Positions 125-59,919 of a stretch of DNA of 59,919 nt are shown one piece after another. Both the position numbers and the translations under genes were made by a program. Where the stretch lies: UHGV virus genome UHGV-0342645; one strand, 5' to 3'. Within the stretch, counting starts at the first letter, position 1. Every line of letters starts with the position of its first letter. The notes under the pieces were generated by a model. That model had not been told where the DNA came from. It searched no databases and saw only the letters and a list, made by a program, of their open reading frames with translations. The DNA comes from a virus.

Positions 125-1621
125 CTATTCTTTATCGGAAGCGTCGTCTTCCTTAGGATCTTTGTTTACTTGCTGCTCTGCGTTTAAATCAGCTTTAGCA
201 TCATCGGGCAGAGGCCACTTCTTAAGCTCTTCTTCAAGAATTGCCATTTCTTCTTCAAAGCTTAGTGTGGTCAAGCCCTGATCAACAAGCCAGCCATGAA
301 TAGACTGCAAGCTGATCGGAGCCTTAAGGTTGCGTGCAGTAATAATTTGAACAAAGTCCTGACCGTTAAACATGCTCTTGGTAAATTCAAGATTAGGCTT
401 AACCACAACCTTCTCTGGATCAGCACCCATCCATTTAGCACAAACCTTCAGCAAGTTTTCCAAACCTGCCGCACCAGTATACGCAATTCGAATCAGGCTA
501 GCGGTACGCGCAGCAATACGCGTTTTCATAGCTTCGCCCGATTCCTGCGTGCTCTTGGTGTTGTTTACCATCTGCCCGGCTTTAATCTGAGCTTCTTGCT
601 TATCCGCTGCTAATGCGAGGCGTTGCTCGGACAAACCGTCACCGCTAACGCCTACATATTTAGCGTCACCACCAATAGCAACGTTAATGACCGCTCCAGG
701 ACCGATGCGCTGAGGGGCTTTATCTCCATTCTCCCCAGTACCGCCAACAACAACTAATGTGTCCTGCCCCTGCATATGCAGACTCTGACGGTAATCAGCA
801 TCACTTCGGTACATGCTTAGGCAGATGTTAGCTAGCCCCAATAATGGTGGCGCTTCCGGTGCTGGGGTAATATCTGTCGTATTAACAAACTGGAAAGGTA
901 TTTCGTCCAGCGTGTTACCTTTATAATAAGGAGCAATCATTTGCCCTTCATCATAATTGGTATTGTTGATAAACAAATGCTGGGAGTAGACCGCCCCACC
1001 TGCAACTTCATCTGTGTCCATCGGGCCTAATTGCAGGACGCGATAACGCTTCTCTTCTTTCCAGTCAAACTGATTGACACGTACAGGACCGCTTTCATCC
1101 AGAACAACCATGTTCAAGTTGATATTGCCTAATTCATCTTTACCATCATCCCAGTTGATAATGGATAAAGCATCATAAACGCTAATATAAGGTCTGTTAT
1201 TTACATCCTCACCTTTCGGCAAGTCCAGCAGCAGGCCCAAACGTCCATTTTTTAACTGCATTTCGTTGATGCGACGTAGCAGAGCAATAATGTCTTCACC
1301 GTCCGCAGTACACAGCTCCCGCATGTACTCCATTTCAGGAGGAAGCTGGATTGTAGGAGGCTTCTGGTGCAACAGACCTAAATTGTTTGTGACCGCACTT
1401 GAATAATCGTCAGGGAAGTTAGCACGCAGACGATAAGCAAGCCAACGTTGAAAGCCCAAATCATTAGGATTATTCATCCCATCAATAATCATGGAAGCTA
1501 AAGGTGGTAGATATTTAACACCTTCTTCCTTAATTTTATCTTCACCCTCATAGCAGTCGTTGCACTTAACCCATGCATCCTTCCACTTGTCATATAGCGG
1601 GTGAGTTGCATCAATACCCAT
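125..1621 (-). CDS. portal protein
   Basis: 498 aa ORF directly downstream of the terminase large subunit and upstream of scaffold/capsid genes. Size, order and acidic C-terminus are typical of siphovirus portals. Confidence 0.75.
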   Translation of the reverse strand: MGIDATHPLYDKWKDAWVKCNDCYEGEDKIKEEGVKYLPPLASMIIDGMNNPNDLGFQRWLAYRLRANFPDDYSSAVTNNLGLLHQKPPTIQLPPEMEYMRELCTADGEDIIALLRRINEMQLKNGRLGLLLDLPKGEDVNNRPYISVYDALSIINWDDGKDELGNINLNMVVLDESGPVRVNQFDWKEEKRYRVLQLGPMDTDEVAGGAVYSQHLFINNTNYDEGQMIAPYYKGNTLDEIPFQFVNTTDITPAPEAPPLLGLANICLSMYRSDADYRQSLHMQGQDTLVVVGGTGENGDKAPQRIGPGAVINVAIGGDAKYVGVSGDGLSEQRLALAADKQEAQIKAGQMVNNTKSTQESGEAMKTRIAARTASLIRIAYTGAAGLENLLKVCAKWMGADPEKVVVKPNLEFTKSMFNGQDFVQIITARNLKAPISLQSIHGWLVDQGLTTLSFEEEMAILEEELKKWPLPDDAKADLNAEQQVNKDPKEDDASDKE

Positions 1622-1632
1622 ATACCCTCCAG

Positions 1633-3192
1633 TTAAATACCGATAGTTTTACCAACACCTGTATAAACAGCTTGATCCAGAACCATATAACGTACTTCAT
1701 CCCCCATATGGTCTTCGCATTCCGTATCAACGTCGTCCTGATCTACTTCATCGCGCGGAAGACTTGGAACCAGCTCAAAGAAATAATTGCAATTATCGAA
1801 AACATACATTGCTGGATTTTCACGTGGTCCCGGCAAAGGTTTACCGTTTGCATCTTCCCGCAACGCGGCTTTAAGAAACTCACGCATTTTCTGCCATCCG
1901 CGTTTACGCGACCCAGCAGATTTATCACTTCTCTTCCAATGGATGCCGTTATACAGCTTGCCGTTGAGACGGATTTTCTTCGCCATTGTTGCAGCGGTGG
2001 AGTTATTGTTCTCCAGATCCCAAATAGAATTATCCGCAGGTCCAGGAACTACACGGTCGTGTATGCCCCAGGCCAATTCCCGCTCCAGTATACCGCTTGC
2101 AATCTCTGAGTCCAGCAAATGTAGACCTTCGTTTGTTTTACCGTTAGTGCCGTACCATTCGTTAATACGGAACAAGTCACCGCGTACAGTAGAGAATGTA
2201 GTACCGTCCTCACGTACAACATCCGAACCGTCACTAATAGCCCACCAGCCAACGGAGAATGGTTTTGAAGAACCCCAGTCGAAAGAACGTGTAATCTTCC
2301 AGCTTGATGGGATTGGGAATGGGCGTATTTTATGAACAGTGCTACGCCACAGATCATCGAACATACCGCCGGAGGTGATATCCCAGCTACCGCCTAACCA
2401 TGCAGCTCGTTTGTTCGGATCTGTGATGGACATAAGCTCTGCAATATATTTCGGGCTCAGGTTTTTGTTCTCGCGGTAAGATCCGAAGATATGGCATTGC
2501 GTCGTAACCACATCTTCCTCTTTCTGCGTCCGCGGGTTAAACACTCGCGTAGTTTTCCTGAGTATCTTACCCATCGGTGCAGCATCAATGAAGCGTTTCT
2601 TAACCCAGTTATGCCCCGCACCAAACGGGTTACTGGTAGCAAATACTTCCAGAGGAATGTCTGGTAAATATGTGACAGTACCGTCCGGATCGATAATTGG
2701 ATTATCTTCGGGTAGGAAGGATGAACGGTTACAGGACATCATTGCTTCAAACAAACGCCCGTCCGGATACTTTGTTAATTCGTTCCATCCGATAAACGGG
2801 TATTCGTGACCATGATAAGACCAATAATCCTTTTCTTTGCAAGCAACACGGAACAGCAATTCTTCCCCAGTGGGCCAAACCCATTTATAATCAGACTTCG
2901 AGCTAAGGAATTTAGCACCATCTTTAAATTCAGGGAACCAACGCTGTGATTTGGTTACAAGGTCATCAAGGTTTTTATATTCACGATCGAATATAATACC
3001 CTTCCAGAATTTACCGTACCCTACGCCAACATTCTTACGGAAACGCATAAGCTGGCAGTCCGTCTTTCCAGGACCGCGAGTACCGTGGTATAAAATGATA
3101 TCAGCAGGACAGGATAGAGCGAGTGTCTGTGAACCTGGATGTGGCTTCCAGACTACTCGCGGCATGTTATCAGGTTGTCGGTTTAGCTCCAT
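1633..3192 (-). CDS. terL: terminase large subunit
   Basis: 519 aa. N-terminal ATPase with P-loop-like HGTRGPGKTD and a C-terminal nuclease-sized domain. Overlaps the upstream small-subunit-like ORF by 23 nt. Confidence 0.85.
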   Translation of the reverse strand: MELNRQPDNMPRVVWKPHPGSQTLALSCPADIILYHGTRGPGKTDCQLMRFRKNVGVGYGKFWKGIIFDREYKNLDDLVTKSQRWFPEFKDGAKFLSSKSDYKWVWPTGEELLFRVACKEKDYWSYHGHEYPFIGWNELTKYPDGRLFEAMMSCNRSSFLPEDNPIIDPDGTVTYLPDIPLEVFATSNPFGAGHNWVKKRFIDAAPMGKILRKTTRVFNPRTQKEEDVVTTQCHIFGSYRENKNLSPKYIAELMSITDPNKRAAWLGGSWDITSGGMFDDLWRSTVHKIRPFPIPSSWKITRSFDWGSSKPFSVGWWAISDGSDVVREDGTTFSTVRGDLFRINEWYGTNGKTNEGLHLLDSEIASGILERELAWGIHDRVVPGPADNSIWDLENNNSTAATMAKKIRLNGKLYNGIHWKRSDKSAGSRKRGWQKMREFLKAALREDANGKPLPGPRENPAMYVFDNCNYFFELVPSLPRDEVDQDDVDTECEDHMGDEVRYMVLDQAVYTGVGKTIGI

Positions 3193-3727
3193 CTTCAGTC
3201 TCTTTAACTAGTCGTTGTTGAGACTCGGATGCAGTTTTTTCCCATTCGTCAATATTTGCTACAGCAGGGACTATCATTACGCCGCCTCTGTTAGTAACAT
3301 CAATTTTAGCCTTCTTGGGAGCATCCAAATCATAAATTTGTGCAAGCTTGCCCAATGCGGCTACTCTAGCAGCTTGAGAAGATCCCGGTCCTGTATAATG
3401 AGCTTCACGTTTTAATGCTTCAATGATATGCTGACGCTCTAGGTCTGCTTCAATGTTAGCTTGCTCAGAAGTACGTTGAACACGGGATCTTTCAATCTCC
3501 TTGAGCTTCCATCGAACGTAACAGTCCGTGGCAAAGCGTTGGCCAAGCTCCTGTGCAAACATAGCATTGAACCCGCATCTCATGCAAGCGTTAGTCCAAT
3601 TGTAGTCGAACATATACTCAGCAACAACTTTGTCACGTATTGCCATCTCGTCAGCGGACAAGCTATTTGCATACTGGATATAGTTCGTCCAGTCACGATC
3701 ATATTGCTCTTGACTTGCCCCGTTCAT
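3170..3727 (-). CDS. terS: putative terminase small subunit
   Basis: 185 aa ORF with GGGGAG SD, immediately upstream of and overlapping terL. Call rests on position and size only. Confidence 0.5.
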   Translation of the reverse strand: MNGASQEQYDRDWTNYIQYANSLSADEMAIRDKVVAEYMFDYNWTNACMRCGFNAMFAQELGQRFATDCYVRWKLKEIERSRVQRTSEQANIEADLERQHIIEALKREAHYTGPGSSQAARVAALGKLAQIYDLDAPKKAKIDVTNRGGVMIVPAVANIDEWEKTASESQQRLVKETEDGAKPTT

Positions 3728-3747
3728 GGAAGCTCCCCTTCTTATTG

Positions 3748-4053
3748 CTATTTAGGCTGAATATAATTGCTTGATCCTACAAAATCAAGCGAAACATTTT
3801 CAGCTTCATAGCGTATGATTTCCTTAACCCTTAGCTTACATTCGGTCAGAGCAGTTTCTGTATCCTGTAAACGTCGGATAATATCTCTTGTGTAAACCAA
3901 AGGAATTTTCTCAACTTCCCGACATTCCACCAGTAGATGCGCGGGTAGTCTTACCTTCACTATCTGTGGAGCTGGGGGAGGTTGAGTCTGCGTCGAGCAA
4001 CCTGCGCAAATCATCAGGAATACGCTCGTTAAGATAAGCTTTGACGTCAGCAT
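3748..4053 (-). CDS. Rz1: o-spanin (Rz1-like outer-membrane lipoprotein)
   Basis: Internal ATG at 4053 gives MLTSKLILTSVFLMICAGC: signal peptide plus lipobox, then a Pro-rich mature N-terminus. Starts inside the 3' end of the i-spanin gene in another frame. Confidence 0.7.
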   Translation of the reverse strand: MLTSKLILTSVFLMICAGCSTQTQPPPAPQIVKVRLPAHLLVECREVEKIPLVYTRDIIRRLQDTETALTECKLRVKEIIRYEAENVSLDFVGSSNYIQPK

Positions 4054-4387
4054 TGCTTTTCTCCAGTGTCTGCAACTTGTCCTGAAGCAACTTGTGGTTA
4101 TGTTGTTCATCTTGAATTGCAGAAGTTAGTTTCTTGAAAGAGTCCGTGTCCTTCTCCCTTTGTGCAGCAAGAAATACAACAGCCTCGCCCAGCTTTGCAT
4201 TGTCTTTCTCCACAACGGTTAAACGTTCTTCAGCCAAACTTAAATTTGATTTGTTAAGCTCGTTCTGTGACCACAGGTAGGCAGCCACCCCGCATAAAAA
4301 CACCACCGCGCCAATCATCAGGTACTCGATAAATAGACGCGGTTTAGCTTTTATAAAACTGAAGAAGTTATTTAGAATCATTTTCAT
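3911..4387 (-). CDS. Rz: i-spanin (Rz-like)
   Basis: N-terminal TM helix (LFIEYLMIGAVVFLCGVAAYLW) followed by a coiled-coil-like periplasmic domain. Lies downstream of the holin and overlaps the o-spanin. Confidence 0.7.
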   Translation of the reverse strand: MKMILNNFFSFIKAKPRLFIEYLMIGAVVFLCGVAAYLWSQNELNKSNLSLAEERLTVVEKDNAKLGEAVVFLAAQREKDTDSFKKLTSAIQDEQHNHKLLQDKLQTLEKSNADVKAYLNERIPDDLRRLLDADSTSPSSTDSEGKTTRASTGGMSGS

Positions 4388-4712
4388 GTTTGCAGTCCTC
4401 TGAGTCGAGTTTGATCCCTGTCCGCGATGCTAGAAGCGACTTTAGAGCTTTTAGCGTAGCACGTGAACCCGCCCAAGCGAATAGGCCAGCAAGGCCAAAA
4501 GCGAACCAAAGGCTGATATTAAACTCCCTGTAGATCGCGTACATTATAACGCCGAAGAACGCGGCGGATAAGCCTTCAAGACATGCAATGCTTAACCGTA
4601 CTTTCTTACCAGCGTCAATTGTGCGCATGACGTAACCGAGAGCTCCCCCAATGAGGGAAATCAGAGCAAACCCCGCTAGAACTGCCCAATGTTCGTTTGA
4701 TGAGTTGAACAT
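4368..4712 (-). CDS. holin (three predicted TM helices)
   Basis: ATG 4712 with GGAGGG SD. 114 aa with three hydrophobic helices and a charged C-terminus. Lies between the endolysin-like gene and the spanins. Confidence 0.65.
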   Translation of the reverse strand: MFNSSNEHWAVLAGFALISLIGGALGYVMRTIDAGKKVRLSIACLEGLSAAFFGVIMYAIYREFNISLWFAFGLAGLFAWAGSRATLKALKSLLASRTGIKLDSEDCKHENDSK

Positions 4713-4721
4713 GTTCCCTCC

Positions 4722-4743
4722 AATAAAAAGGGGCTGACGCCCC
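4722..4743 (-). terminator. intrinsic terminator-like hairpin between endolysin-like gene and holin
   Basis: Minus strand GGGGC-gtca-GCCCC followed by TTTTTATT. Ends just before the holin SD. Confidence 0.55.
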
Positions 4744-4748
4744 ATCAG

Positions 4749-5186
4749 TTAAATTACCATTGCAATAGCGCGGTCGATCACGTCATCAGTATAAGGCATC
4801 ATGCCATTTTCATGACGAATGATTGCTTTCACCAAACCTGACATTATCGTCTTGTCGAAGACATTAATTGGATCGTTGGGTTGAACACCAATTGCTTTGG
4901 CAACAGAACGAATATACGCTTCCGTATCGTTTTCATTAGGCGGAGCCCAGCGAGCGATAATTTCACGTACAGTGTCGATGTTTCTCTTACCCACATTGGG
5001 CAAGCCTTCACGTTTGGTGTAGTTTGTCAGGACTTTCGCCAGAGCGCGGATGCCGTAGATCGGTTGCGTAAATTGCGCAAAAGATTTGTCGGTCCGCTTA
5101 TCAACAGGGACCAATCCCTGCCAATTATCACCCCAGCGAATATTACCTGGATTGTTATTACGAATACCACGAGGTTGAAGCGCCAT
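4749..5186 (-). CDS. putative endolysin (RNNNPGNIR-motif lysin / structural-protein-P5-like family)
   Basis: ATG 5186 with GGAGGA SD. The 235-aa track ORF overlaps the upstream gene and lacks an SD. 145 aa beginning MALQPRGIRNNNPGNIRWG. First gene of the lysis cassette. Confidence 0.5.
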   Translation of the reverse strand: MALQPRGIRNNNPGNIRWGDNWQGLVPVDKRTDKSFAQFTQPIYGIRALAKVLTNYTKREGLPNVGKRNIDTVREIIARWAPPNENDTEAYIRSVAKAIGVQPNDPINVFDKTIMSGLVKAIIRHENGMMPYTDDVIDRAIAMVI

Positions 5187-5268
5187 ATCGAGTTCCTCCG
5201 CTTGACATGAACCACTCAAGGGTAACAGAGAAACTTGATACGGCGCAAGGAGAATTGATCTAAGAAGA

Positions 5269-5529
5269 TTACCCGTCAAACCACTCGCCAATGTACCAGC
5301 TAACAAGACCTTTTCCACCTTTATCGACCCCGTAGCTGGAGTAAAAAGTGAAGTTATCGGGTTCGTGTTGCAGGATAACCATAAAGTCATGCTGAGTGTT
5401 GTCAATAATTGCAATAGCGATTTCCTCGTTATCTGTGATAAAGATTTCGCCACCAATTACAACATGCGTCCCGTGGTCAACTACCTTACTATGATAAGCA
5501 GGTGGGATCAGGTGACTGAATGTAGTCAT
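5269..5529 (-). CDS. hypothetical protein
   Basis: 86 aa with GAGGG SD. Abuts the upstream gene stop, in the same-strand operon. Confidence 0.6.
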   Translation of the reverse strand: MTTFSHLIPPAYHSKVVDHGTHVVIGGEIFITDNEEIAIAIIDNTQHDFMVILQHEPDNFTFYSSYGVDKGGKGLVSWYIGEWFDG

Positions 5530-5994
5530 TTAAAAACCCTCAAATGATATTGTATCAACTCCCAGGAATGCGCATGTGGTGTGTTTAATTGCTAACTCAA
5601 TAGCTTCGCTCGCACTTGCACCAGCAGCTAACGCGCCAGCAGCAAACACACAACCGCTACCCTCAGATCCCCATCCATCCAGCATGGGTTTGCTCAAAGT
5701 ACCATCATTATAAATAAAATGGCAAGTACCTTCCGGAGTAACCGCAAGACCGCAAGTTTGCCCGTAATCATCATCTTTGCTGTAAAGTTTAATATCAGGG
5801 AACTTAACAGGTTCCGCGCTATTAAAATAACGCAACACCTGATCGGTAAATGCTGTAAGGCCGCACAATCCCAGTAAAAACCGTCCACGATGTCCATTTA
5901 CGCTATGAACTTTCTTATAAGCAGTCACAGCTTCCCCGCGCATAACTCCACGGTCCGCAGCTAATACTTTTCCATCAAACGCAATTGTGGTCAT
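5530..5994 (-). CDS. HslV / proteasome beta-like Ntn-hydrolase peptidase
   Basis: MTTIAFDGKVLAADRG (Thr exposed after Met removal), a YKKV lysine at the HslV K33-like position, and GSGCVFAAGALAAGASASEAIELA matching the HslV GSG...A motif region. Confidence 0.7.
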   Translation of the reverse strand: MTTIAFDGKVLAADRGVMRGEAVTAYKKVHSVNGHRGRFLLGLCGLTAFTDQVLRYFNSAEPVKFPDIKLYSKDDDYGQTCGLAVTPEGTCHFIYNDGTLSKPMLDGWGSEGSGCVFAAGALAAGASASEAIELAIKHTTCAFLGVDTISFEGF

Positions 5995-6176
5995 TTAATT
6001 TTCCTTTGGTCTTGGATAATAACAATGCATAAAACAAATAGAATAAGACAGATACAAAGCCCTGTACTTGCAAAGATTCGGATAACCGTGGAAGGTTGTT
6101 CGACTACTGTATAGGTATAAAGCCCAGCGAACATTAACGTCGCAAATAAAAACAATCCGGCGTATAGTTTGGTCAT
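5991..6176 (-). CDS. small membrane protein (2 TM)
   Basis: 61 aa with two hydrophobic helices and a GGGG SD. 4-nt overlap with the downstream gene. Confidence 0.55.
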   Translation of the reverse strand: MTKLYAGLFLFATLMFAGLYTYTVVEQPSTVIRIFASTGLCICLILFVLCIVIIQDQRKIK

Positions 6177-6238
6177 TGTGTACCCCTCTTATTCGATGGG
6201 TACACAATACAATGAAGGGTTATGTGATAGCAAGGTTT

Positions 6239-6661
6239 TTAATTAAGCACAATCTCAACGTCTTTAACCCAAGTATGAATGATAAATGCTCCTGGCTGTT
6301 CAGGATCTTGATCCGGGCCAACGTAGAACTTTTTACCTTCCCAACCTTTAATTGGGTCATGTACAATAAACTTGTGATTAGTTGTATCGATCACAACCTG
6401 ATGCAGTGCTCCAGGAACATTGAGACTTGGGACAGTGCACAAAAACAAACCACCCATGTATATAGTCTCACGCCCACCGCCTACAGAACAGATGTGGTCA
6501 ACATTGTTTTGTACTAAATATTCGGAAATTGTTATTTCCCAGTTGTTGTAATATCGATCATGAAATTCCGCAATTACTTCTTCTACAGGTCTATTAAGGA
6601 TCATTGCTAGACACGCAGAAACGCATGTATTTAAAGAAGGTTGCTTGACGTGTTTAATCAT
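6239..6661 (-). CDS. papain-fold cysteine peptidase, C39-like
   Basis: N-terminal QPSLNTCVSACLAMIL (Q...C catalytic-Cys context of C39-type peptidases) and downstream HQVVID..HDP as candidate His/Asp. Confidence 0.5.
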   Translation of the reverse strand: MIKHVKQPSLNTCVSACLAMILNRPVEEVIAEFHDRYYNNWEITISEYLVQNNVDHICSVGGGRETIYMGGLFLCTVPSLNVPGALHQVVIDTTNHKFIVHDPIKGWEGKKFYVGPDQDPEQPGAFIIHTWVKDVEIVLN

Positions 6662-6662
6662 T

Positions 6663-7133
6663 TTACGCCTCGTATATGACTTCTGGCTCGTTATTATAAG
6701 GACGCAGCAGCAAACGCGCTACCAGCGACGTACGCTTGCTCAACCCTTGCGGATGCACAAACCCAACAAACTGGTAGTGACAACCGCGCAGGTGGTGCAA
6801 ACTCTTAGCACAATGACACGCTTCCAAACGAAGTGTCTCGCCCGACTGCCATTTAACCACAATAGTAGAGCCCGCGATCATGTTAATTTCTACGTCACCA
6901 ATATCTATTTGAAGACGTAAAAGATCTTCTACAACATTACGGACATAGACAAGGATCTGTGATGTGGGCATAACAATAAGCCCGTTCCAGTCTTTCCCGC
7001 GCCCCAAGCCGCAACGACGTGCGAATCTTGATATTAACTGAGTCTCTGTAACCTGTTTTACTTCAAACGACTTCTTCAGTTGGCAGTCTTTGGATTCGTC
7101 CATTGCATCAACAATAGTTTTAACGTCAGCCAT
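6663..7133 (-). CDS. hypothetical protein
   Basis: 156 aa with GGAG SD, tightly packed in the operon. Confidence 0.6.
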   Translation of the reverse strand: MADVKTIVDAMDESKDCQLKKSFEVKQVTETQLISRFARRCGLGRGKDWNGLIVMPTSQILVYVRNVVEDLLRLQIDIGDVEINMIAGSTIVVKWQSGETLRLEACHCAKSLHHLRGCHYQFVGFVHPQGLSKRTSLVARLLLRPYNNEPEVIYEA

Positions 7134-7136
7134 TAT

Positions 7137-7529
7137 TTACTCCGCTAATGTGTAAGGAATACCGGATGCTTTAATCTGTCTGTACATGTCCATAGTACCA
7201 GCTCCGCCCGGAAACACAATAGCGTGATCTGGTTTGGGATCAGTATCCAGCATTAATTGATTGCGGTAAGCGCCAGCTTGTGCATTATAAGCACCTCTGG
7301 CGTTATACCGTATCTTAGTATTCGGTAAGGAAAGATTGTCCCACGGCGCAGGAAACGCCTCCGTCTTAATACCGTTCCGCTCCGCCCAATGTGCGCAAAT
7401 GCGGTCAACACCGTCAGCGTCACCGTGGCGAAGTGTGGTTATCCTTCTTTGCATATGCAGCTTATCCAATTGAGCATAGATATACTCCACATTCTTAAAA
7501 TTACGACCTCCGGTAACAACTAATAGCAT
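7137..7529 (-). CDS. SLOG-superfamily DUF2493-like protein
   Basis: MLLVVTGGRNF...HGDADGVD...IVFPGGAGT. Rossmann-like GG / GDxxGxD / PGG pattern typical of DUF2493 (YspA-related SLOG). Confidence 0.55.
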   Translation of the reverse strand: MLLVVTGGRNFKNVEYIYAQLDKLHMQRRITTLRHGDADGVDRICAHWAERNGIKTEAFPAPWDNLSLPNTKIRYNARGAYNAQAGAYRNQLMLDTDPKPDHAIVFPGGAGTMDMYRQIKASGIPYTLAE

Positions 7530-7592
7530 TATTTCTTCTCCAATGGTTTCAACATTTCGTCAATAAAACCTTTCCAATATTTGATATTTTCT

Positions 7593-8066
7593 TCAATCAA
7601 CAATAATCTCCTTAAAACGGTTATACAAATCACGATAGAACAAAGGACCATTAGCATTGCGACGCAGGAAGTCCTTTGCTACAGCTTCCAGAGCTTCGCA
7701 GCGATCACGCAACTCTTGAGCCTTCTTCTCGGTATGCGCCCACACCTCTTCGCTGGTCACACCCGGCGGATTCATTGCACCAACAATTTGACGCAAACGA
7801 ATATAAGAATCGGATAAAGCGTGTTCAGCAGCACGCATGTCGACAAGGTTAGTTTCAGCATTTTCGGCACGTTCTTCCTGAGCTCGCCATTCTGCTTCTA
7901 GCTGGTCAATGCGCATATCACGATAACCCAGTTCCGCAGCAATATCACCTTTGCTGTGCAAACCTTCGGATGTCATTGCCATAACATGACGGGAGTAATA
8001 ACCTCCAGCTTGATCCAGTTCCCAAGCGTCGCGTTCTAAATCATAGCATTTATTTTTCTGTGACAT
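7593..8066 (-). CDS. hypothetical protein (possibly Ea22/Ead-like)
   Basis: 157 aa with GGAGA SD. The MAMTSEGLHSKGDIAAELGYRD segment recalls Ead/Ea22-like prophage proteins, from weak recollection only. Confidence 0.55.
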   Translation of the reverse strand: MSQKNKCYDLERDAWELDQAGGYYSRHVMAMTSEGLHSKGDIAAELGYRDMRIDQLEAEWRAQEERAENAETNLVDMRAAEHALSDSYIRLRQIVGAMNPPGVTSEEVWAHTEKKAQELRDRCEALEAVAKDFLRRNANGPLFYRDLYNRFKEIIVD

Positions 8067-8352
8067 ATGTAGTAATCTCCTTCAGCGTATCGCGCCAGTC
8101 CGCACCTTCAAGGTCAACTTCACCGCAGTAGCGACACTTATCACCATCATACAGCCATTCTTTAAGTTGTTCATATGCTTTAGGCTTACTATTATAACAG
8201 TGGACAACACCGTTAGCATCCACTGCAATGTGAGTAGCCCAAGGTGCCACAGGGATTTCCTGACCAAAAAACAGGACTTTGATTGCAGTTTTAGAATCGA
8301 CCGCAGGGATATCCGGTTTTTCTCGATTTAAATCCATTCCTAAATAAAGCAT
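8050..8352 (-). CDS. hypothetical protein, member of a 3-copy paralogue family
   Basis: GGAGG SD. Shares VAPWATHIAVD...DLEGADWRDTLKEI with 8683..8934 and 29405..29659. Confidence 0.65.
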   Translation of the reverse strand: MLYLGMDLNREKPDIPAVDSKTAIKVLFFGQEIPVAPWATHIAVDANGVVHCYNSKPKAYEQLKEWLYDGDKCRYCGEVDLEGADWRDTLKEITTYVTEK

Positions 8353-8403
8353 AACAACCTCCAGATAATTAAGGGCTCCGTAGAGCCCATTATAGATTGA
8401 TAA

Positions 8404-8682
8404 TTACACTTCCTCCAGGAAATTGGCGCCTACAAGACCAGTATAACTGATTTCGTAAGCATCCTCTTCTTCATCGTATTCATCGCTACCCTGGCTAACA
8501 ATTACAGTATGGTTCCACTGCCCGAAAAGGCTATGCAGATCAAACACCACCTTATTAACAGTAACAATAGAACCAGCTTTCAGTTCCCGGAACTCAACAC
8601 CATCGCCCGGAGCATACCCAACACCGCCAATATCAGTCAGTAAACGATACTCTTTACCTTCAACAATCTCTTCTACACGCAT
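8404..8682 (-). CDS. hypothetical protein
   Basis: 92 aa with GGAGG SD. Start abuts the upstream stop. Confidence 0.6.
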   Translation of the reverse strand: MRVEEIVEGKEYRLLTDIGGVGYAPGDGVEFRELKAGSIVTVNKVVFDLHSLFGQWNHTVIVSQGSDEYDEEEDAYEISYTGLVGANFLEEV

Positions 8683-8934
8683 TTAAGCCTCCGAACTAAC
8701 ATTAACTAAAGAATTTACCCAACGACCTTCTTCGAAAGGAAACTCGCCAATAAAGACGGATTTACCCGTATCCTCATACCATCTGTCGTAATCGTCGTAT
8801 CCGTCTATATAAGGCTCATTTTCATAAGCATAGAGCTCTTCACACTTATCAACCGCGAGCCAGTTAGCCCAGACAGGCACTACAACCCGAGTCCCGAAAT
8901 AGTTAACAACCTTTTCATCATATTCTACACGCAT
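8683..8934 (-). CDS. hypothetical protein, paralogue family member
   Basis: ATG 8934 with GAGGAA SD preferred over track start 8964, which has no SD. The MRV... start aligns with paralogue 29405. Contains the VPVWANWLAVD motif. Confidence 0.55.
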   Translation of the reverse strand: MRVEYDEKVVNYFGTRVVVPVWANWLAVDKCEELYAYENEPYIDGYDDYDRWYEDTGKSVFIGEFPFEEGRWVNSLVNVSSEA

Positions 8935-8945
8935 TCTTCTTTCCT

Positions 8946-9302
8946 CTATATATTTTTCTGCCATTGACGAACAGTTTCTAACATAGATTTATAATCGTCA
9001 TCCCAATCATAATTCTCAACATCTTTTTGAAGTTTGGCGATCATTTCTTCAAGGCTGTTAGCTGGTAAGTAGCTTTCACCAAATGCAGCAAGACGTTTGT
9101 GATAATCGGGGCTTTGTTCATCCACCCAGCCAAATTCAGCTTCAAATGAATCACAACCCGAGCACGATCCATAAGAACCTTCACAAACCCCCAATACACC
9201 ATCTTTTCTTATCAGGGCAAGCCATTCACCCTGATAACAACCAAACTCAACAAAATCTAATACTTCGCATCCAGCAGCTTCTAATGCTAATTGATAAGAC
9301 AT
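8946..9302 (-). CDS. hypothetical protein
   Basis: 118 aa with GAGGAG SD and a Cys-rich central segment (SYGSCSGCDSF). Confidence 0.6.
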   Translation of the reverse strand: MSYQLALEAAGCEVLDFVEFGCYQGEWLALIRKDGVLGVCEGSYGSCSGCDSFEAEFGWVDEQSPDYHKRLAAFGESYLPANSLEEMIAKLQKDVENYDWDDDYKSMLETVRQWQKNI

Positions 9303-9544
9303 TCTTCTTGCTCCTCTACATATTTAGTGACACATTTTTGAAAATTAAGAACGATATTTTTCTCTTTTACGGAGTGAAATTTAACACGTTCCGGGCAGAT
9401 AATCCAGCCTTCAAAACGTTGAGTAGCGTCATTCCATGCAGCACGACCATAATAGCCGCGATATGGACCTAATCGCATTGCATTTACCTCTGTAACCACA
9501 TTGCTGGAGGTGCTGGGTGTAGCGCTTACACTGGAGTCGCACAT
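9287..9544 (-). CDS. hypothetical protein with HicB-like fold signature
   Basis: ATG 9544 with AGGAGG SD. GYYGRAAWNDATQRFEGWI...KFHSVKEKNIVLNFQKCVTKYVE resembles HicB-like antitoxin N-domains, from pattern recollection only. Confidence 0.5.
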   Translation of the reverse strand: MCDSSVSATPSTSSNVVTEVNAMRLGPYRGYYGRAAWNDATQRFEGWIICPERVKFHSVKEKNIVLNFQKCVTKYVEEQEECLIN

Positions 9545-9653
9545 AATACCTCCTTGATGCTCTAAAAACAGGTGTGAATTGATAGAAATTGCTTGCATCC
9601 GCTTAAAGATGGTAGCTATGGAGCAGCTACAAGACGAATTATACGTTGACGAC

Positions 9654-9878
9654 TCAGAATTTACTACCAAAATCCATATATTTGACGGTTATAGTGAATA
9701 TGCCATGTTTAATATTGTCCGTGAGATACAAATTACTATCCAATTCCTCTTTAGTGTACAGATAAGCATTACTTACTTCATCTGTAAGTCCTTGCATCGG
9801 AGCAAGCAGCCACCAACCCCTCCAGTCAAACATAGGCGATTTATCAGACACTCTTAATATATAACGTTTATTATTCAA
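9654..9878 (-). CDS. hypothetical protein
   Basis: 74 aa ORF with a TTG start and only a weak SD. Coding status is uncertain. Confidence 0.35.
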   Translation of the reverse strand: MNNKRYILRVSDKSPMFDWRGWWLLAPMQGLTDEVSNAYLYTKEELDSNLYLTDNIKHGIFTITVKYMDFGSKF

Positions 9879-9899
9879 ACCAATACCTTGTCACCAGAC

Positions 9900-9995
9900 T
9901 AATTTCGCATTGCTAGTACAACAATTAGCACCATTAACATTGCTCCAGCTACCATACCGAGCACAAATACACTAGCTAATCCGATTAAACTCATT
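9900..9995 (-). CDS. small hydrophobic peptide (31 aa, single TM)
   Basis: Not in the track (<60 aa). GGAGA SD 7 nt upstream of ATG 9995. Translation: MSLIGLASVFVLGMVAGAMLMVLIVVLAMRN. Confidence 0.4.
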
Positions 9996-10340
9996 TCAAT
10001 ATCTCCGATCAGTTTTATATCATCCATATTTTAACACTAAACCCAGTATATAGAAAGCGTGAAATACTCAAGGGTCCGTTTTTAAGGTAGGTGGGGTCAT
10101 GGATGTAGGTGGATAGTAAAGTGATGGGTGAGATTTAGACAAGGACTTACTATCAGGATGGACAGGGCACGCCCCAGCGCTCCAAGTACCTGGAAAAGGA
10201 TGGGTCGGGTTGCGCGGCTGGGCCTGCGTGGGTCGGTGTGCGCTGTGCGAGCTGTGCGCCACGCTGTGCGCCTGTTTCACCCGAGCTAATGCATTACCAT
10301 TGCCTATATGCATTAGCTCGCTAGCGTGGCGCTGTGTGTG

Positions 10341-10499
10341 TTATAGCGCCGCTCCTCCTTTGCGGGCTTTACGTGCTGCATAACGCTGTTCCCTTACTTC
10401 GTTGTATTGGCGATCCCATTTAGCATCCATTACTTCGGTTACGATCAGTGCTACCAGTGGACTTACTACTGCGATAACCATCATAATTAAAATTAACAT
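10341..10499 (-). CDS. small membrane protein (52 aa, N-terminal TM, basic C-terminus)
   Basis: Not in the track. GGAG SD then ATG 10499. Translation: MLILIMMVIAVVSPLVALIVTEVMDAKWDRQYNEVREQRYAARKARKGGAAL. Confidence 0.5.
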   Translation of the reverse strand: MLILIMMVIAVVSPLVALIVTEVMDAKWDRQYNEVREQRYAARKARKGGAAL

Positions 10500-10548
10500 T
10501 TTGTTTACTCCGTTATTTGGTTGATGTATGTAGTATCCACCAGACCGA

Positions 10549-10731
10549 TCACGATGTCCAGATGTTTTGGTCGATTAATTTTGCATAGAAGTCGCGCCCT
10601 GTCTGCATGGCTTGGGACCAGTTGGTTTCTTCCCATTCCATGCGCATAACCTGCAATAATAACGCGTGTTGTGCGCGGGTAAGTTTGTTTTTACTGGACA
10701 TAATATACCTCTGCATAGTTAAGTTAGCCAT
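10549..10731 (-). CDS. hypothetical protein (first gene of leftward arm)
   Basis: 60 aa with AGGGG SD, downstream of the leftward promoter. Confidence 0.55.
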   Translation of the reverse strand: MANLTMQRYIMSSKNKLTRAQHALLLQVMRMEWEETNWSQAMQTGRDFYAKLIDQNIWTS

Positions 10732-10782
10732 TTTGTGTACCCCTTTAAGTTAAGTTTTACTGTATTACCTTGCTATGTGTAT

Positions 10783-10811
10783 ATAGTAATGCTAGACCTA
10801 AAACTTGCCAA
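10783..10811 (-). promoter_or_regulatory. sigma70-like leftward promoter
   Basis: Minus strand TTGGCA (10811..10806), 17 nt spacer, TACTAT (10788..10783). The -35 overlaps the -35 of the rightward promoter. Confidence 0.55.
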
Positions 10812-10833
10812 GTGTTTTTGCACTTTTTATAAA
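10805..10833 (+). promoter_or_regulatory. sigma70-like rightward promoter
   Basis: TTGCCA (10805..10810), 17 nt spacer, TATAAA (10828..10833). The -10 lies within the 12-bp palindrome TTTTTATAAAAA. Confidence 0.55.
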
Positions 10834-11053
10834 AATATTTTGGCACCTTTTATGCCTGCGTGTGCGTGCCCGCGCGTATAGTGCAATTCGTGTGATGTTA
10901 GTTAGGCCGTTTGTGCTAAACATGCAGGGCAAGCATAATTTTCACTAGATGCAAAACAATATCAAAATAGCACTTTTGGCCTATTCAATATCACGATGCA
11001 AGGCTATTATTACTTCAACAAAGCAATACTGCTTAACCACATTAGGTAGCATC

Positions 11054-11206
11054 ATGGAATTCAAATTAGTGGGACTCGAGTCCGGTAAAATAGCTGGTTA
11101 TGTATCTGCTCCAAGCTGGGAAGAGGCCGAAATCTTCTTAATGGGTCAGTTCGATATGTACATTAGCGAAATTTACAAAGAATACGATTTAGTCCAAATT
11201 AAGTGA
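11054..11206 (+). CDS. hypothetical protein
   Basis: Internal ATG 11054 (MEFKLVGL...) with AGGTAG SD-like sequence. 50 aa. Confidence 0.4.
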   Translation: MEFKLVGLESGKIAGYVSAPSWEEAEIFLMGQFDMYISEIYKEYDLVQIK

Positions 11207-11274
11207 TTTATATCTTGCCTAGTTGATACGACTGGGCAATAATAAGTCAACTTAAACAAAACGAGGATTACATC

Positions 11275-11523
11275 ATGGCTACTTCTATCGTCACCAAATT
11301 TTTGGCACCAACTAACACCAAAGGCGCACGCATTGCAGTTAAAGGTTTTGGCAAGCGCAAAGTCTATAGCTGGGACTATGCACTCGACGTAACGCTTAAC
11401 CATAAAGCAGCGGTACAGCAGTTCCTCAAAGCGTTTAACGCCGAAAACGACACCGACTATGGCATCGTTGCTTTCGCAAGCATGGATATCGCAACCGCCG
11501 ATTTCGTAGCAATCGTGCAGTAA
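11275..11523 (+). CDS. hypothetical protein
   Basis: 82 aa with GAGGA SD. Confidence 0.6.
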   Translation: MATSIVTKFLAPTNTKGARIAVKGFGKRKVYSWDYALDVTLNHKAAVQQFLKAFNAENDTDYGIVAFASMDIATADFVAIVQ

Positions 11524-11596
11524 GTTTTCTTATACACTGCTCATCATTACGGTGGGCAGTAATAAGCAAACTAACATTAACGAAAGGAGATATACC

Positions 11597-12169
11597 ATGT
11601 CTAAAGTAACTCACCGCGAACAGGACAAAATGCGCTACACCATGAAAACGAATGCACGCCGCGCCCTTAAGACCCGTTGGGGCCAGGTTGCACGCGATGC
11701 ACACGAACAGTTAATCCATCAGGACGATATCGGTTTTTACATCGTCGAAAAGGAAGTCCTTCAGGTTCTGCGCGACCATGAAAAAGCTCAAAAGCCGGAG
11801 CAGAAAGTCCCAGCACCGACCGCCGCGCCAGCTGCCCGCGTCTCGGTACTGCGCCCGATGGTAAATCCGGAAATCGTCAAAAGCTGCCTCGAAGCTCTGG
11901 AGCAGGAGGAAGAGAAAGATATGAAACACGCAAAAGCTGCCGCACCAAAACAGGATGCAAAAGCTGCTCGCTGTGATTTCAAAAATGGCGCTCGCAAGCC
12001 GCTCAAAGGAAAAACTGCCGAAGTGTGGGCAATGGGTGACAAACTTCTGAAGGAACTGGGCCGCACGCCGGAGCTGAAAGAAATGAAAGCTGCAATGCCT
12101 TCTTACAACGGGACAACTGTTGCCATTCAGTTCTACGCCTGGCGCAAATATAACGACCTGGACGCATAA
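11597..12169 (+). CDS. hypothetical protein
   Basis: ATG 11597 with AAGGAG SD (MSKVTHREQ...). 190 aa, Lys/Ala/Glu-rich. Confidence 0.6.
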   Translation: MSKVTHREQDKMRYTMKTNARRALKTRWGQVARDAHEQLIHQDDIGFYIVEKEVLQVLRDHEKAQKPEQKVPAPTAAPAARVSVLRPMVNPEIVKSCLEALEQEEEKDMKHAKAAAPKQDAKAARCDFKNGARKPLKGKTAEVWAMGDKLLKELGRTPELKEMKAAMPSYNGTTVAIQFYAWRKYNDLDA

Positions 12170-12209
12170 TCTATAACCACACTGTTCACTGACGGCTTCT
12201 GCGGGAGCC

Positions 12210-12539
12210 CTATTTAAGATAAAGATTTTCAATCATATCGTTTTTCGGGTCGTTAATATACTTCCCGAAGACAGCTTTCTTACCCTGCGGCCCGTGGAAC
12301 ATTTCGTACACAATACGGGTCCGTAACACTTTACGGTTTTCCCCGCCACAAATTGGAGCAAGACTAATCCTAGCTTGCAGATGAGCAGCGCATATATCCT
12401 TAGCTTCGTCACCTTTAGTTATGCCATATTTTTTAAAAGACTTCTTCCAGAATAAATCCCCGTCGCGGTATTCAAAATATTTATTCCAATTAGGTTCCTT
12501 CTTCCACCAGTGCTTTTCATAATCCCATTCAAGGCTCAT
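12210..12539 (-). CDS. hypothetical protein, possibly a degenerate homing-endonuclease-like DNA-binding protein
   Basis: Lone minus-strand gene in the plus arm. ATG 12539 with GGAG SD. FEYRDGDLFWKK...RISL...RIVYEMFHG recalls N-terminal regions of phage HNH/AP2 endonucleases, but no HNH motif is present. Confidence 0.45.
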   Translation of the reverse strand: MSLEWDYEKHWWKKEPNWNKYFEYRDGDLFWKKSFKKYGITKGDEAKDICAAHLQARISLAPICGGENRKVLRTRIVYEMFHGPQGKKAVFGKYINDPKNDMIENLYLK

Positions 12540-57891: not shown

Positions 57892-58953
57892 TTAGGAACC
57901 CTGATACTCACGAGTGATCAGGCGTGCGACTTTAAGCTGCTTGCGCTCAAGGAACGCACGACGCCAGGAATCTTCATGGGCCAGGTTGTTAGTGGTAGCA
58001 GCGTTAGACGGACCACCTTTAGCAGTTTGGGCAGCAGCCCAAGCATGACCGACCGGATGCAGAATCCATTCAACACGGTTGTGAAGAACTTCTTCACCAG
58101 CACCATTGTTAGCAGCTTCGTCACGAACCACAGCGGTCGGAACTTTTGGTGAACCAGCACCCATTGCAGTCGCGCCCGGGCCGAACAGCCAGCTTTCAAA
58201 GATACCAGTAGACGGATCGTGCGGCATGGAGTCGTCTTCAATAATACGCAAACCCTGATAATACTCGAACTGAGTTTCACCGCGAGCATCCGGAATGAAG
58301 TCGATCAGGTTCAGCTGACGCATACGATTACGAACGGTAGAGTGTACCATAATCATGGTCAGACCACGAGCAGCATCACCCATCGTTGCAGTTGCGTTGA
58401 TGAAGTTAGACGCGGTAAAGTTGGTCTGGTTGTTTACAAATGAAGAACCGGAAATATCGAACGTCAGATCGTCCGAATGGGATTTCTTGGCATTAGCAAA
58501 TACACCTTTCCAGGTTGCAATGTATGCAGCTTGCAGACGGCGAACCCACCACGCAGACACGCGATTACCGATAGCGGTCATTGGGTCGTTACCAATCAAA
58601 GCAGATACCAGATCCGCAGAACCCCAGGATTTTGAGCGACTCATACGAACCTGAACTTCAGATCCGGTAGTGATGTTTGACGGTTTGGACGGAGCACCTT
58701 TATCGATCGCAATATCTTCGTCTTCGTCTTTCAGGTCATTATAGAACGGCTCGTTAAAAGTCAAACCTGCACCAGCAAGGTTAGCAGATAAACGCTCGTC
58801 CATTACAACTGCACCGGATTGAATCAGAGCAGAAAGTTCAGCGGTCTGCGTCTGCACATAACCAGTGAAGATTTCAGGGACGATCACGTCAGCCAAACGA
58901 GTCAGGTCACTGTCACCACGACCAAATGGCAGAATAATTTTAGATTTAGACAT
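57892..58953 (-). CDS. major capsid protein
   Basis: 353 aa with AGGAGA-type SD, after the scaffold-like gene and followed by a strong terminator. Size and order fit HK97-fold capsid proteins. Confidence 0.8.
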   Translation of the reverse strand: MSKSKIILPFGRGDSDLTRLADVIVPEIFTGYVQTQTAELSALIQSGAVVMDERLSANLAGAGLTFNEPFYNDLKDEDEDIAIDKGAPSKPSNITTGSEVQVRMSRSKSWGSADLVSALIGNDPMTAIGNRVSAWWVRRLQAAYIATWKGVFANAKKSHSDDLTFDISGSSFVNNQTNFTASNFINATATMGDAARGLTMIMVHSTVRNRMRQLNLIDFIPDARGETQFEYYQGLRIIEDDSMPHDPSTGIFESWLFGPGATAMGAGSPKVPTAVVRDEAANNGAGEEVLHNRVEWILHPVGHAWAAAQTAKGGPSNAATTNNLAHEDSWRRAFLERKQLKVARLITREYQGS

Positions 58954-59075
58954 ACTTGTCTCCAGGAAAAGGATTGATTTGTTTACTGTTGGTAGCCTTT
59001 CCCCGTGGAAGGCTGTTTAGGAACCCGTGTCCCTGATGTGTTGAAACTTAACATCAGGGACGTCGGGATGTCAAC

Positions 59076-59919
59076 TTATTTCTTAGCAGGACGTACAGGC
59101 TTCAGTGGGTCTACGCCATTCTTTTCAGCTAAACGTTTAGCTAAAGATTGGTTAGTTTTCCAGAGATTCATCTGCTTAGAGATGTTCCAACCGTCGTGAC
59201 TGTATGGATCTTCACCGTGATGGCCACCCGCGCCCGGACCAGATGCACCACCACCAGCAGATCCTTCAACCCAGTGCGGACGTTTCGGAAGGATTTCGTT
59301 CAGCCAGTCCGCCGGAGTTAGGTAAGGAGTTACACCAGCCCCATCTTTCGTAACCACATTACCGTTCTCGTCGACAGTCATTTGCAACTGCGCATAAGTT
59401 ACAGCGTCTTCGATAGCAGATGGACGCAATTTAGCACCAGAAGCAGCGGCAATAACTGCATCTTTAATCTTCGCTTTAGTTTCGCGAGTGCGGTAGCCTT
59501 CAATTTCCTGCTTAACCGTGTCACGCTCGGCGATAACAGTTTGCAATTGACGCTCGAGCGGCGCAAGACGGGCTTTGACCATCTTCTCAATGTCTTCCGG
59601 ATTGCCTTTACCGTTAGCAGCAGCTTCCAGCTCAGGGATACGATCCAAATCCGCCAGGACTTCTTCAACTGGACGCCCCAGTGCGCTAATTTGTTGTTTC
59701 ACCTGACGATGATCGTTACGCTCTTTTGCTAACGCACTTTCCAGACGACGAACGCTATCAGCAGGTGCTACACCTTTGACTTTTGCAAGAACGTATTTAC
59801 CGCCCTGCTCTGCGTAAAGAGTTGCAAATTCCGCTGGGATTTCTTCCGCAGATGCGTACTCGTATTGTAATTCCACATCACCTTCACCGCGAGCGCGTGG
59901 ATTAATTAAAGCAAAACCA
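59076..59919 (-). CDS. head scaffolding-like protein (3' portion; true start at 29 across the window junction)
   Basis: Open frame continues upstream of the track GTG start to the window edge, with no SD before the GTG. Charged helical protein with a Gly-rich C-terminal region, between the portal and capsid genes. Confidence 0.65.
   Translation of the reverse strand, partial: GFALINPRARGEGDVELQYEYASAEEIPAEFATLYAEQGGKYVLAKVKGVAPADSVRRLESALAKERNDHRQVKQQISALGRPVEEVLADLDRIPELEAAANGKGNPEDIEKMVKARLAPLERQLQTVIAERDTVKQEIEGYRTRETKAKIKDAVIAAASGAKLRPSAIEDAVTYAQLQMTVDENGNVVTKDGAGVTPYLTPADWLNEILPKRPHWVEGSAGGGASGPGAGGHHGEDPYSHDGWNISKQMNLWKTNQSLAKRLAEKNGVDPLKPVRPAKK

Follow-up and report, generated by a model that had tools for sequence, protein, structure and literature searches.

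A compact proteasome/HslV-like hydrolase of the PPH family, encoded at the start of the late lysis and packaging block of a Seuratvirus-type Escherichia coli phage

A gene whose product resembles the proteolytic core of a bacterial protease raises the question of what such an enzyme does in a virus, and when. The gene considered here lies on the minus strand of the UHGV virus genome UHGV-0342645; the window (i.e. the whole stretch of DNA analysed, 59,919 nucleotides) derives from a Seuratvirus-type E. coli phage. A preliminary description, made from the sequence alone, had read the 154-amino-acid (aa) product as an HslV/proteasome-beta-like N-terminal nucleophile (Ntn) hydrolase encoded in an 'early-left region', and had suggested that it could hijack the host unfoldase HslU or act alone to remove host factors. 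In the present analysis, the protein was assigned to PPH, a phage-encoded family of the proteasome superfamily that has already been described and is not true HslV, and its gene was located at the start of the late lysis and packaging block. The gene and its translation signal are as follows:

5530..5994, minus strand: PPH-family gene for a 154-aa proteasome-beta/HslV-like N-terminal-threonine hydrolase (ATG-to-TAA open reading frame)
6002..6005, minus strand: AGGA ribosome-binding core, 7 bases 5' of the PPH ATG (read from the sequence)

Translation confirmed the open reading frame (ORF) and the motifs reported earlier: the product begins with MTTIAFDG and carries YKKV at residues 26-29 and GSGCVFAAGALAAGASASEAIELA at residues 112-135. 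No in-frame start was found farther 5' of the ATG when the ORF was checked. Comparison with the genes of four related phages gave 7-35 synonymous and 1-5 non-synonymous differences, and because the resulting ratio of non-synonymous to synonymous rates (dN/dS) is 0.03-0.04, the ORF is a real gene under purifying selection. Escherichia phage KS_W4 shares 98.6% identity with the region, and CAjan and Seurat (Queuovirinae, Seuratvirus) share about 93%. Proteins of 99.4% identity from Seurat/CAjan-type phages are labelled 'peptidase HslV family', 'putative protease' or similar in RefSeq/GenBank. The family is already known, and near-identical genomes already carry an annotation for this gene.

Some of the related database records were unusual. 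The 5000-6700 region is nearly identical to records of Aeromonas phage SD04 (98.4%) and Cronobacter phage CSP1 (95.8%), which was unexpected given such different stated hosts. In record PQ202980.1 (Escherichia phage CSP1C), product names are apparently off by one gene when compared with the CAjan annotation: 'ATP-dependent protease subunit HslV' is placed on an 86-aa gene, 'holin' on a spanin-sized gene and 'endolysin' on a holin-sized gene.

Fold and family were assigned with profiles and a structural model. A single-sequence search of the PDB returned nothing meaningful and a family profile was required: with a 22-sequence profile, HslV chains were matched at E 2.5e-9, with 20S beta subunits and BPH (beta-proteobacteria proteasome homologue) next in rank. 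Among the PHROGs, the protein matched phrog_1040 ('peptidase HslV family', E 1.3e-31). The AlphaFold2 model, built from the same 22-sequence alignment, had a mean predicted local distance difference test score (pLDDT) of 95.2, and the top 50 Foldseek matches of this model in the PDB were HslV, 20S beta and BPH chains only. By fold and family, the protein is a small proteasome/HslV-like Ntn hydrolase, and the assignment made in the preliminary description was upheld.

Catalytic positions were located by aligning an 80-sequence PPH family alignment with E. coli HslV in hhalign (probability 96.9%); the HslV sequence was checked against PDB 5ji3 and 1e94 before alignment. Conservation was scored in 167 family sequences, consisting of the query, the first-round homologues and the best matches of an exhaustive profile search. 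The catalytic positions are kept across this set, down to about 25-35% identity, and correspond to the following codons, listed together with the loop that distinguishes the protein from HslV:

5989..5991, minus strand: Thr2 codon, the predicted N-terminal nucleophile after Met1 loss, equivalent to Thr1 of HslV/proteasome; Thr in 157/167, Ser in 10/167 (hhalign)
5953..5955, minus strand: Asp14 codon, equivalent to the triad Asp17 of HslV; Asp in 166/167 (hhalign)
5911..5913, minus strand: Lys28 codon, equivalent to the triad Lys33 of HslV, the second K of YKKV; Lys in 167/167 (hhalign)
5860..5862, minus strand: Gly45 codon, the oxyanion-hole equivalent, aligned with the second Gly of HslV FAGG (which we take, by motif correspondence, to be proteasome Gly47); Gly in 167/167 (hhalign)
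5653..5661, minus strand: Gly112-Ser113-Gly114 codons, equivalent to proteasome Gly128-Ser129-Gly130 and the HslV IGSGG motif; conserved in 167, 143 and 167 of 167, respectively (hhalign)
5758..5820, minus strand: mostly non-helical loop, residues 59-79, with a conserved Pro66, which replaces the HslV H2 and pore-loop region (DSSP, hhalign)

The preliminary description had made its assignment depend on conserved catalytic Thr and Lys residues, and both are conserved: residue 2 is Thr or Ser in every sequence, and Lys28 is invariant. Asp147 is present in 147 of the 167 sequences.

The identity of the family was then judged from published hallmarks. PPH proteins are described as about 140 residues long, with no propeptide and no C-terminal S12/H5, and as retaining Thr/Ser1-Asp17-Lys33 and Gly47; PPH/RPC are the only members that lack helix H2 (Fuchs et al., 2021, PMC8665760). 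Their genes occur in tailed phages and prophages, chiefly those of Proteobacteria; the proteins are closest to HslV and BPH ('group I') and have been called the first branch of the proteasome family that is truly viral (Fuchs et al., 2021, PMC8665760). All the defining features that were checked are present in the window protein. It is compact (154 aa, family median 148 aa), starts with M-T, has no propeptide, and the profile matches run from residue 1. Thr2, Asp14, Lys28 and Gly45 are conserved at 94-100% in the 167 sequences, the remaining 10 having Ser2. In the model, DSSP defined H1 as residues 47-58 and a strand at residues 80-85, with only a three-residue turn in the intervening loop (residues 59-79), and the chain stops after the last core strand; in hhalign, the HslV H2 segment had no confident counterpart in the PPH family profile. 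Finally, the gene is carried by phages: besides the window, 280 IMG/VR stretches and 487 phage records contain relatives. The window protein is therefore assigned to the PPH family (representative WP_042125023.1) by these defining features. Nothing substantive separates it from published PPH, with which it shares a length of about 140-150 residues, the lack of propeptide, the triad and Gly47, the missing H2, the lack of S12/H5 and the phage origin; its 154 aa place it among the longer members, and it differs from most of them by small insertions at residues 33-36 and 71-78.

Comparison with other members of the superfamily led to the rejection of two candidates. The window protein is about 22 residues shorter than HslV (ClpQ) and has neither H2 nor the short HslV pore loop; its gene belongs to a late phage operon, with no adjacent hslU recognised. 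A true HslV was rejected: with H2 absent, the H1-H4 complement is incomplete, the Pfam model Proteasome (PF00227) scored 15.4 bits in a single-sequence scan, below its gathering threshold of 22.4, and no NCBIfam model matched; scans of PPH and its neighbours with NCBIfam and PADLOC gave no matches. A 20S proteasome beta subunit was rejected because PPH has no propeptide and none of the neighbours scanned was recognised as a second proteasome-like gene. Unlike PPH, BPH is a chromosomal bacterial gene product of about 185-200 aa, with H2 and a long acidic pore loop.

The family is large. The exhaustive profile search of a 1.84-billion-protein library found 7,897 representatives (50% identity clusters) at E <= 1e-10; nearly all of the top 150 are 140-160 aa long and match from residue 1. 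In 2021, 324 nr90 sequences were counted (Fuchs et al., 2021, PMC8665760), and the present number (~7,900 clusters) suggests that PPH is far more abundant than was reported then, notably in metagenomes. With a typical family member as query, tblastn matches were obtained in 487 of 50,697 phage records, the carriers including Jerseyvirus, Kagunavirus, Seuratvirus, jumbo Salmonella, phiCbK-like Caulobacter, Vibrio and Aeromonas phages. The window protein is 30-36% identical to PPH of Nonagvirus. Since the matches span Seuratvirus, Nonagvirus, Jerseyvirus and Kagunavirus, the gene has been retained through the divergence of Seuratvirus/Nonagvirus and Jerseyvirus/Kagunavirus.

The position of the gene bears on the question of when it is likely to be used. 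On the minus strand, the gene order is: 130-aa YspA/SLOG gene, 156-aa gene, 140-aa gene, 61-aa gene, PPH, 86-aa gene, endolysin, holin, Rz-like spanin, TerS, TerL and portal; it wraps to the end of the window, where the scaffold and the major head protein follow. The neighbouring features are:

6239..6661, minus strand: 140-aa neighbour, phrog_4049, no Pfam match, with invariant Gln7/Cys13/His87/Asp102 (family alignment)
5991..6176, minus strand: 61-aa gene upstream of PPH, two hydrophobic segments, phrog_22841, function unknown (ORF, PHROG)
5269..5529, minus strand: 86-aa gene downstream of PPH, phrog_23528, function unknown (ORF, PHROG)
4749-5186, minus strand: endolysin (PHROG; CAjan annotation)
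4368-4745, minus strand: holin (PHROG; CAjan annotation)
3911-4387, minus strand: Rz-like spanin (PHROG; CAjan annotation)
3170-3727, minus strand: TerS (PHROG; CAjan annotation)
1633-3192, minus strand: TerL (PHROG)
125-1621, minus strand: portal (PHROG)
57892-59876, minus strand: head genes, scaffold (phrog_206) and major head protein (phrog_247) (PHROG)

The 61-aa gene ends in a TGA that overlaps the start of PPH (ATGA), and the ATG of the 86-aa gene directly follows the PPH TAA; this overlap and this abutment suggest that PPH is translationally coupled to both neighbours. The placement in an 'early-left region' does not hold: PPH is co-directional with, and directly upstream of, the endolysin, holin, spanin, TerS, TerL and portal genes, its relatives lie in or abut packaging and head modules, and it marks the start of the late lysis and packaging block. 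Because the gene appears to be coupled to the small genes on either side and directly precedes the lysis genes, terminase and portal, we infer that PPH acts late in infection. Homologues of the 61-aa protein were found beside PPH only in Seurat-type phages, and the 86-aa protein had one weak match beside PPH, in Klebsiella phage Kpn2-P2 (E 1e-4).

For the context in relatives, 80 IMG/VR loci and three metagenomic loci were dereplicated into 71 groups, and neighbours were found by clustering all ORFs. No universal partner gene of PPH emerged, the largest neighbour cluster being present in 12 of the 71 groups. TerS, TerL, portal, major head protein or connector genes were found within 7 kb of PPH (<=7 kb) in 46/71 groups, and all the packaging, head and connector genes near PPH (122/122) are on the PPH strand. 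Relative to the packaging/head genes, PPH is embedded in 11 groups, before them in 27 and after them in 8. DnaB and NinB were found upstream of PPH only (14 groups). The slots that recur are TerL-PPH-(149 aa)-portal, portal-PPH, Ad1-PPH-Hc1-Neck1 and PPH-TerS-TerL, and terminase, portal and connector families dominate the PHROG tally of the next two downstream genes.

Lysis genes adjoin PPH in several enterobacterial siphophages: in wksl3 (Jerseyvirus) and RP180 (Kagunavirus), PPH is followed by holin, holin and endolysin, and in JenK1 (Nonagvirus) and Kpn2-P2 by two small genes, spanin, endolysin, holin and TerS. In Vibrio phage K43b, PPH lies between a gp7-like head-morphogenesis gene and the Ad1/Hc1/Neck1 connector genes, and the lysis genes are 20 kb away, on the opposite strand. 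A general link between PPH and lysis was rejected, since no lysis family is among the top 25 of the downstream PHROG tally, few small membrane proteins flank PPH in the metagenomic loci and the K43b lysis genes are elsewhere. The adjacency in enterobacterial siphophages reflects where those phages place their lysis cassette. With 46/71 groups and the downstream tally on one side, and no general lysis link on the other, PPH tracks the late packaging/head region in general.

The same evidence bears on the idea that the enzyme acts on cell-wall peptides during lysis as an amidase, or is a connectase-like ligase or transpeptidase, i.e. a non-proteolytic or small-substrate Ntn enzyme. Connectase, an archaeal protein ligase of the proteasome fold, shares with PPH the superfamily and the N-terminal Thr/Ser nucleophile. 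PPH has no S3/S4 helical insertion, which Fuchs et al. (PMC8665760) regard as the hallmark of connectase. No signal peptide or membrane segment is visible in its sequence, the lysis adjacency is not general, and we regard such an activity as very unlikely.

The packaging and head context also raises a morphogenetic role, in which PPH would clear or trim scaffold, gp7-like or head proteins, or be packaged in the virion, in SPP1-type phages that have no canonical prohead protease. For this role speak the relatives in which PPH is embedded in packaging, head and connector modules (TerL-PPH-portal, portal-PPH, Ad1-PPH-Hc1), the K43b gene that stays in the head module far from the lysis genes, and the makeup of the head regions: no canonical protease was recognisable between the portal, scaffold and capsid genes of the window, and in the sampled carriers the interval from portal to capsid is occupied by gp7/MuF-like and scaffold-like genes, with phrog_595 ('head maturation protease') appearing only as a weaker secondary match below a stronger head-morphogenesis match. 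The PPH slot is variable, unlike those of true morphogenetic genes, and in the window the lysis cassette and terminase separate PPH from the head genes. Heads of the SPP1, P22 and T7 types assemble with no need for proteolysis, PPH-like genes also occur in jumbo phages, which have their own gp21-type prohead protease, and none of the depositor names seen labels PPH as a virion protein. On balance, a capsid-associated protease is unlikely. A tie to head assembly or packaging in SPP1-type phages, in which the enzyme clears or trims scaffold, gp7-like or internal proteins or is delivered with the DNA, is likewise judged improbable; if true, it would define a third, unrelated structural class of phage morphogenetic protease.

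A canonical prohead protease was rejected. The classes known from HK97 gp4 and T4 gp21 (herpesvirus-protease fold) and the ClpP/S49-like enzymes have other folds and use serine, whereas PPH has the Ntn/proteasome fold and a threonine nucleophile. What PPH shares with them is that it is a peptidase of phage origin whose gene, in some relatives, comes immediately after the portal; its position is variable, and in the window it lies outside the portal-scaffold-capsid block, from which the lysis genes and terminase separate it. The preliminary description had argued that the gene is not in the head module and so is not the prohead protease. The first part stands in the window; the argument as a whole is weaker than it appeared, because some relatives sit directly after the portal or between connectors, and the sampled carriers have no clear canonical protease.

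We consider it probable that PPH is a late, minimal, propeptide-free, stand-alone Ntn peptidase that acts on a phage or host protein. By analogy with T1-family chemistry, Met1 would be removed by the host methionine aminopeptidase, and the free alpha-amino and hydroxyl groups of Thr2, together with Lys28 and Asp14, would attack the peptide bond. The oxyanion would be stabilised by the Gly45 backbone and the active site supported by Ser113 of the GSG motif. Since the helices H3/H4, which make ring-ring contacts in the superfamily (Fuchs et al., 2021, PMC8665760), are retained, PPH would probably self-assemble through them.

The docking face bears on whether such an assembly would need HslU. In HslV, access and regulation are controlled by the pore loop, which is formed by the segment that follows H1/H2. 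BPH, to which PPH is as close in structure as to HslV, is reported not to be regulated by an unfoldase (Fuchs et al., 2021, PMC8665760). As the PPH model lacks H2 and an HslV-type pore loop on the face where HslU docks, a stand-alone phage peptidase is favoured over a replacement core for host HslU; of the PPH neighbours scanned, none was recognised as HslU-like. The alternative raised in the preliminary description is a hybrid HslU-dependent protease, in which PPH rings dock host HslU hexamers and redirect the unfoldase to phage-chosen substrates. This hijack is somewhat disfavoured by the absent H2 and pore-loop region and the failure of the curated HslV models, and we hold the hybrid protease to be quite unlikely. 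The position aligned to HslV Lys28, a residue that would anchor the HslU C-terminal tail, also differs from HslV in being variable, and not conserved, in the PPH family; a literature search for HslV residues that bind HslU returned nothing usable.

Several points weigh against the stand-alone, late-acting peptidase. The identified carrier phages infect Proteobacteria, which possess HslU, and this host range is compatible with an HslU partnership. Promoter and terminator scans of positions 3000-12500 performed no better than on shuffled sequence (19 promoter-like sites found, 18.9 expected), so the late timing is drawn from gene order only. The sub-threshold Pfam score and the lack of an NCBIfam match, given above, count in the same direction. 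Connectase has the same fold and is a ligase, and a conserved triad is not proof of protease activity (PMC8665760). No experimental work on any PPH was found in the searchable literature: beyond Fuchs et al. (2021), there were annotation-level mentions only, such as two HslV-like genes in a jumbo phage that has no HslU and, in Erwinia phage RAY, an accessory protein of the 'HslVU family' that localises to the nucleus. A literature search for Seuratvirus proteomics likewise yielded no usable data.

Other features of the region were recorded. In the 140-aa neighbour, the invariant residues are spaced Q-x5-C and H-x14-D. This Gln/Cys/His/Asp pattern is presumably the C39/papain-like cysteine peptidase signature, and the protein is possibly a peptidase of that type; its profile had a non-significant match in the PDB (E 0.63, cysteine endoisopeptidase PeiR). 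In Nonagvirus JenK1 and Klebsiella phage Kpn2-P2, a homologue is encoded two genes upstream of PPH; another immediately precedes the TerL-PPH-portal series of the metagenomic locus L069. The 130-aa protein (7137-7529, minus strand) matches Pfam PF10686 (YspA, cpYpsA-related SLOG family) at E 3.1e-18 and is labelled 'GTP-binding domain' in PHROGs. An ORF at 3748-4110 (minus strand) overlaps the 3' end of the spanin gene (3911-4387) in another frame and contains MLTSKLILTSVFLMICAGCST, which looks like a lipoprotein signal with a lipobox; the ORF may encode an overlapping Rz1-type outer-membrane spanin. The best sigma-70-like match, TTGACA-16-TATGGT (10/12; 5378-5405, minus strand), lies inside the 86-aa gene, about 190 bases before the endolysin start, the number of such sites being no higher than in shuffled sequence. 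The GC-rich hairpin GGGCTCTACGGAGCCC, with an AT-rich tail (8373-8388, minus strand), lies in a 52-base gap between two small genes and is a possible terminator upstream of the PPH-containing block, with a site count that is not above chance.

The value of these results is in part corrective: PPH is a late gene linked to packaging and head modules, and neither an early host-takeover gene nor a plain copy of HslV. The strong association of PPH with these modules offers a useful lead on function. As this group of phages infects E. coli K-12, the role of a minimal proteasome-like enzyme in a virus should be easy to test.
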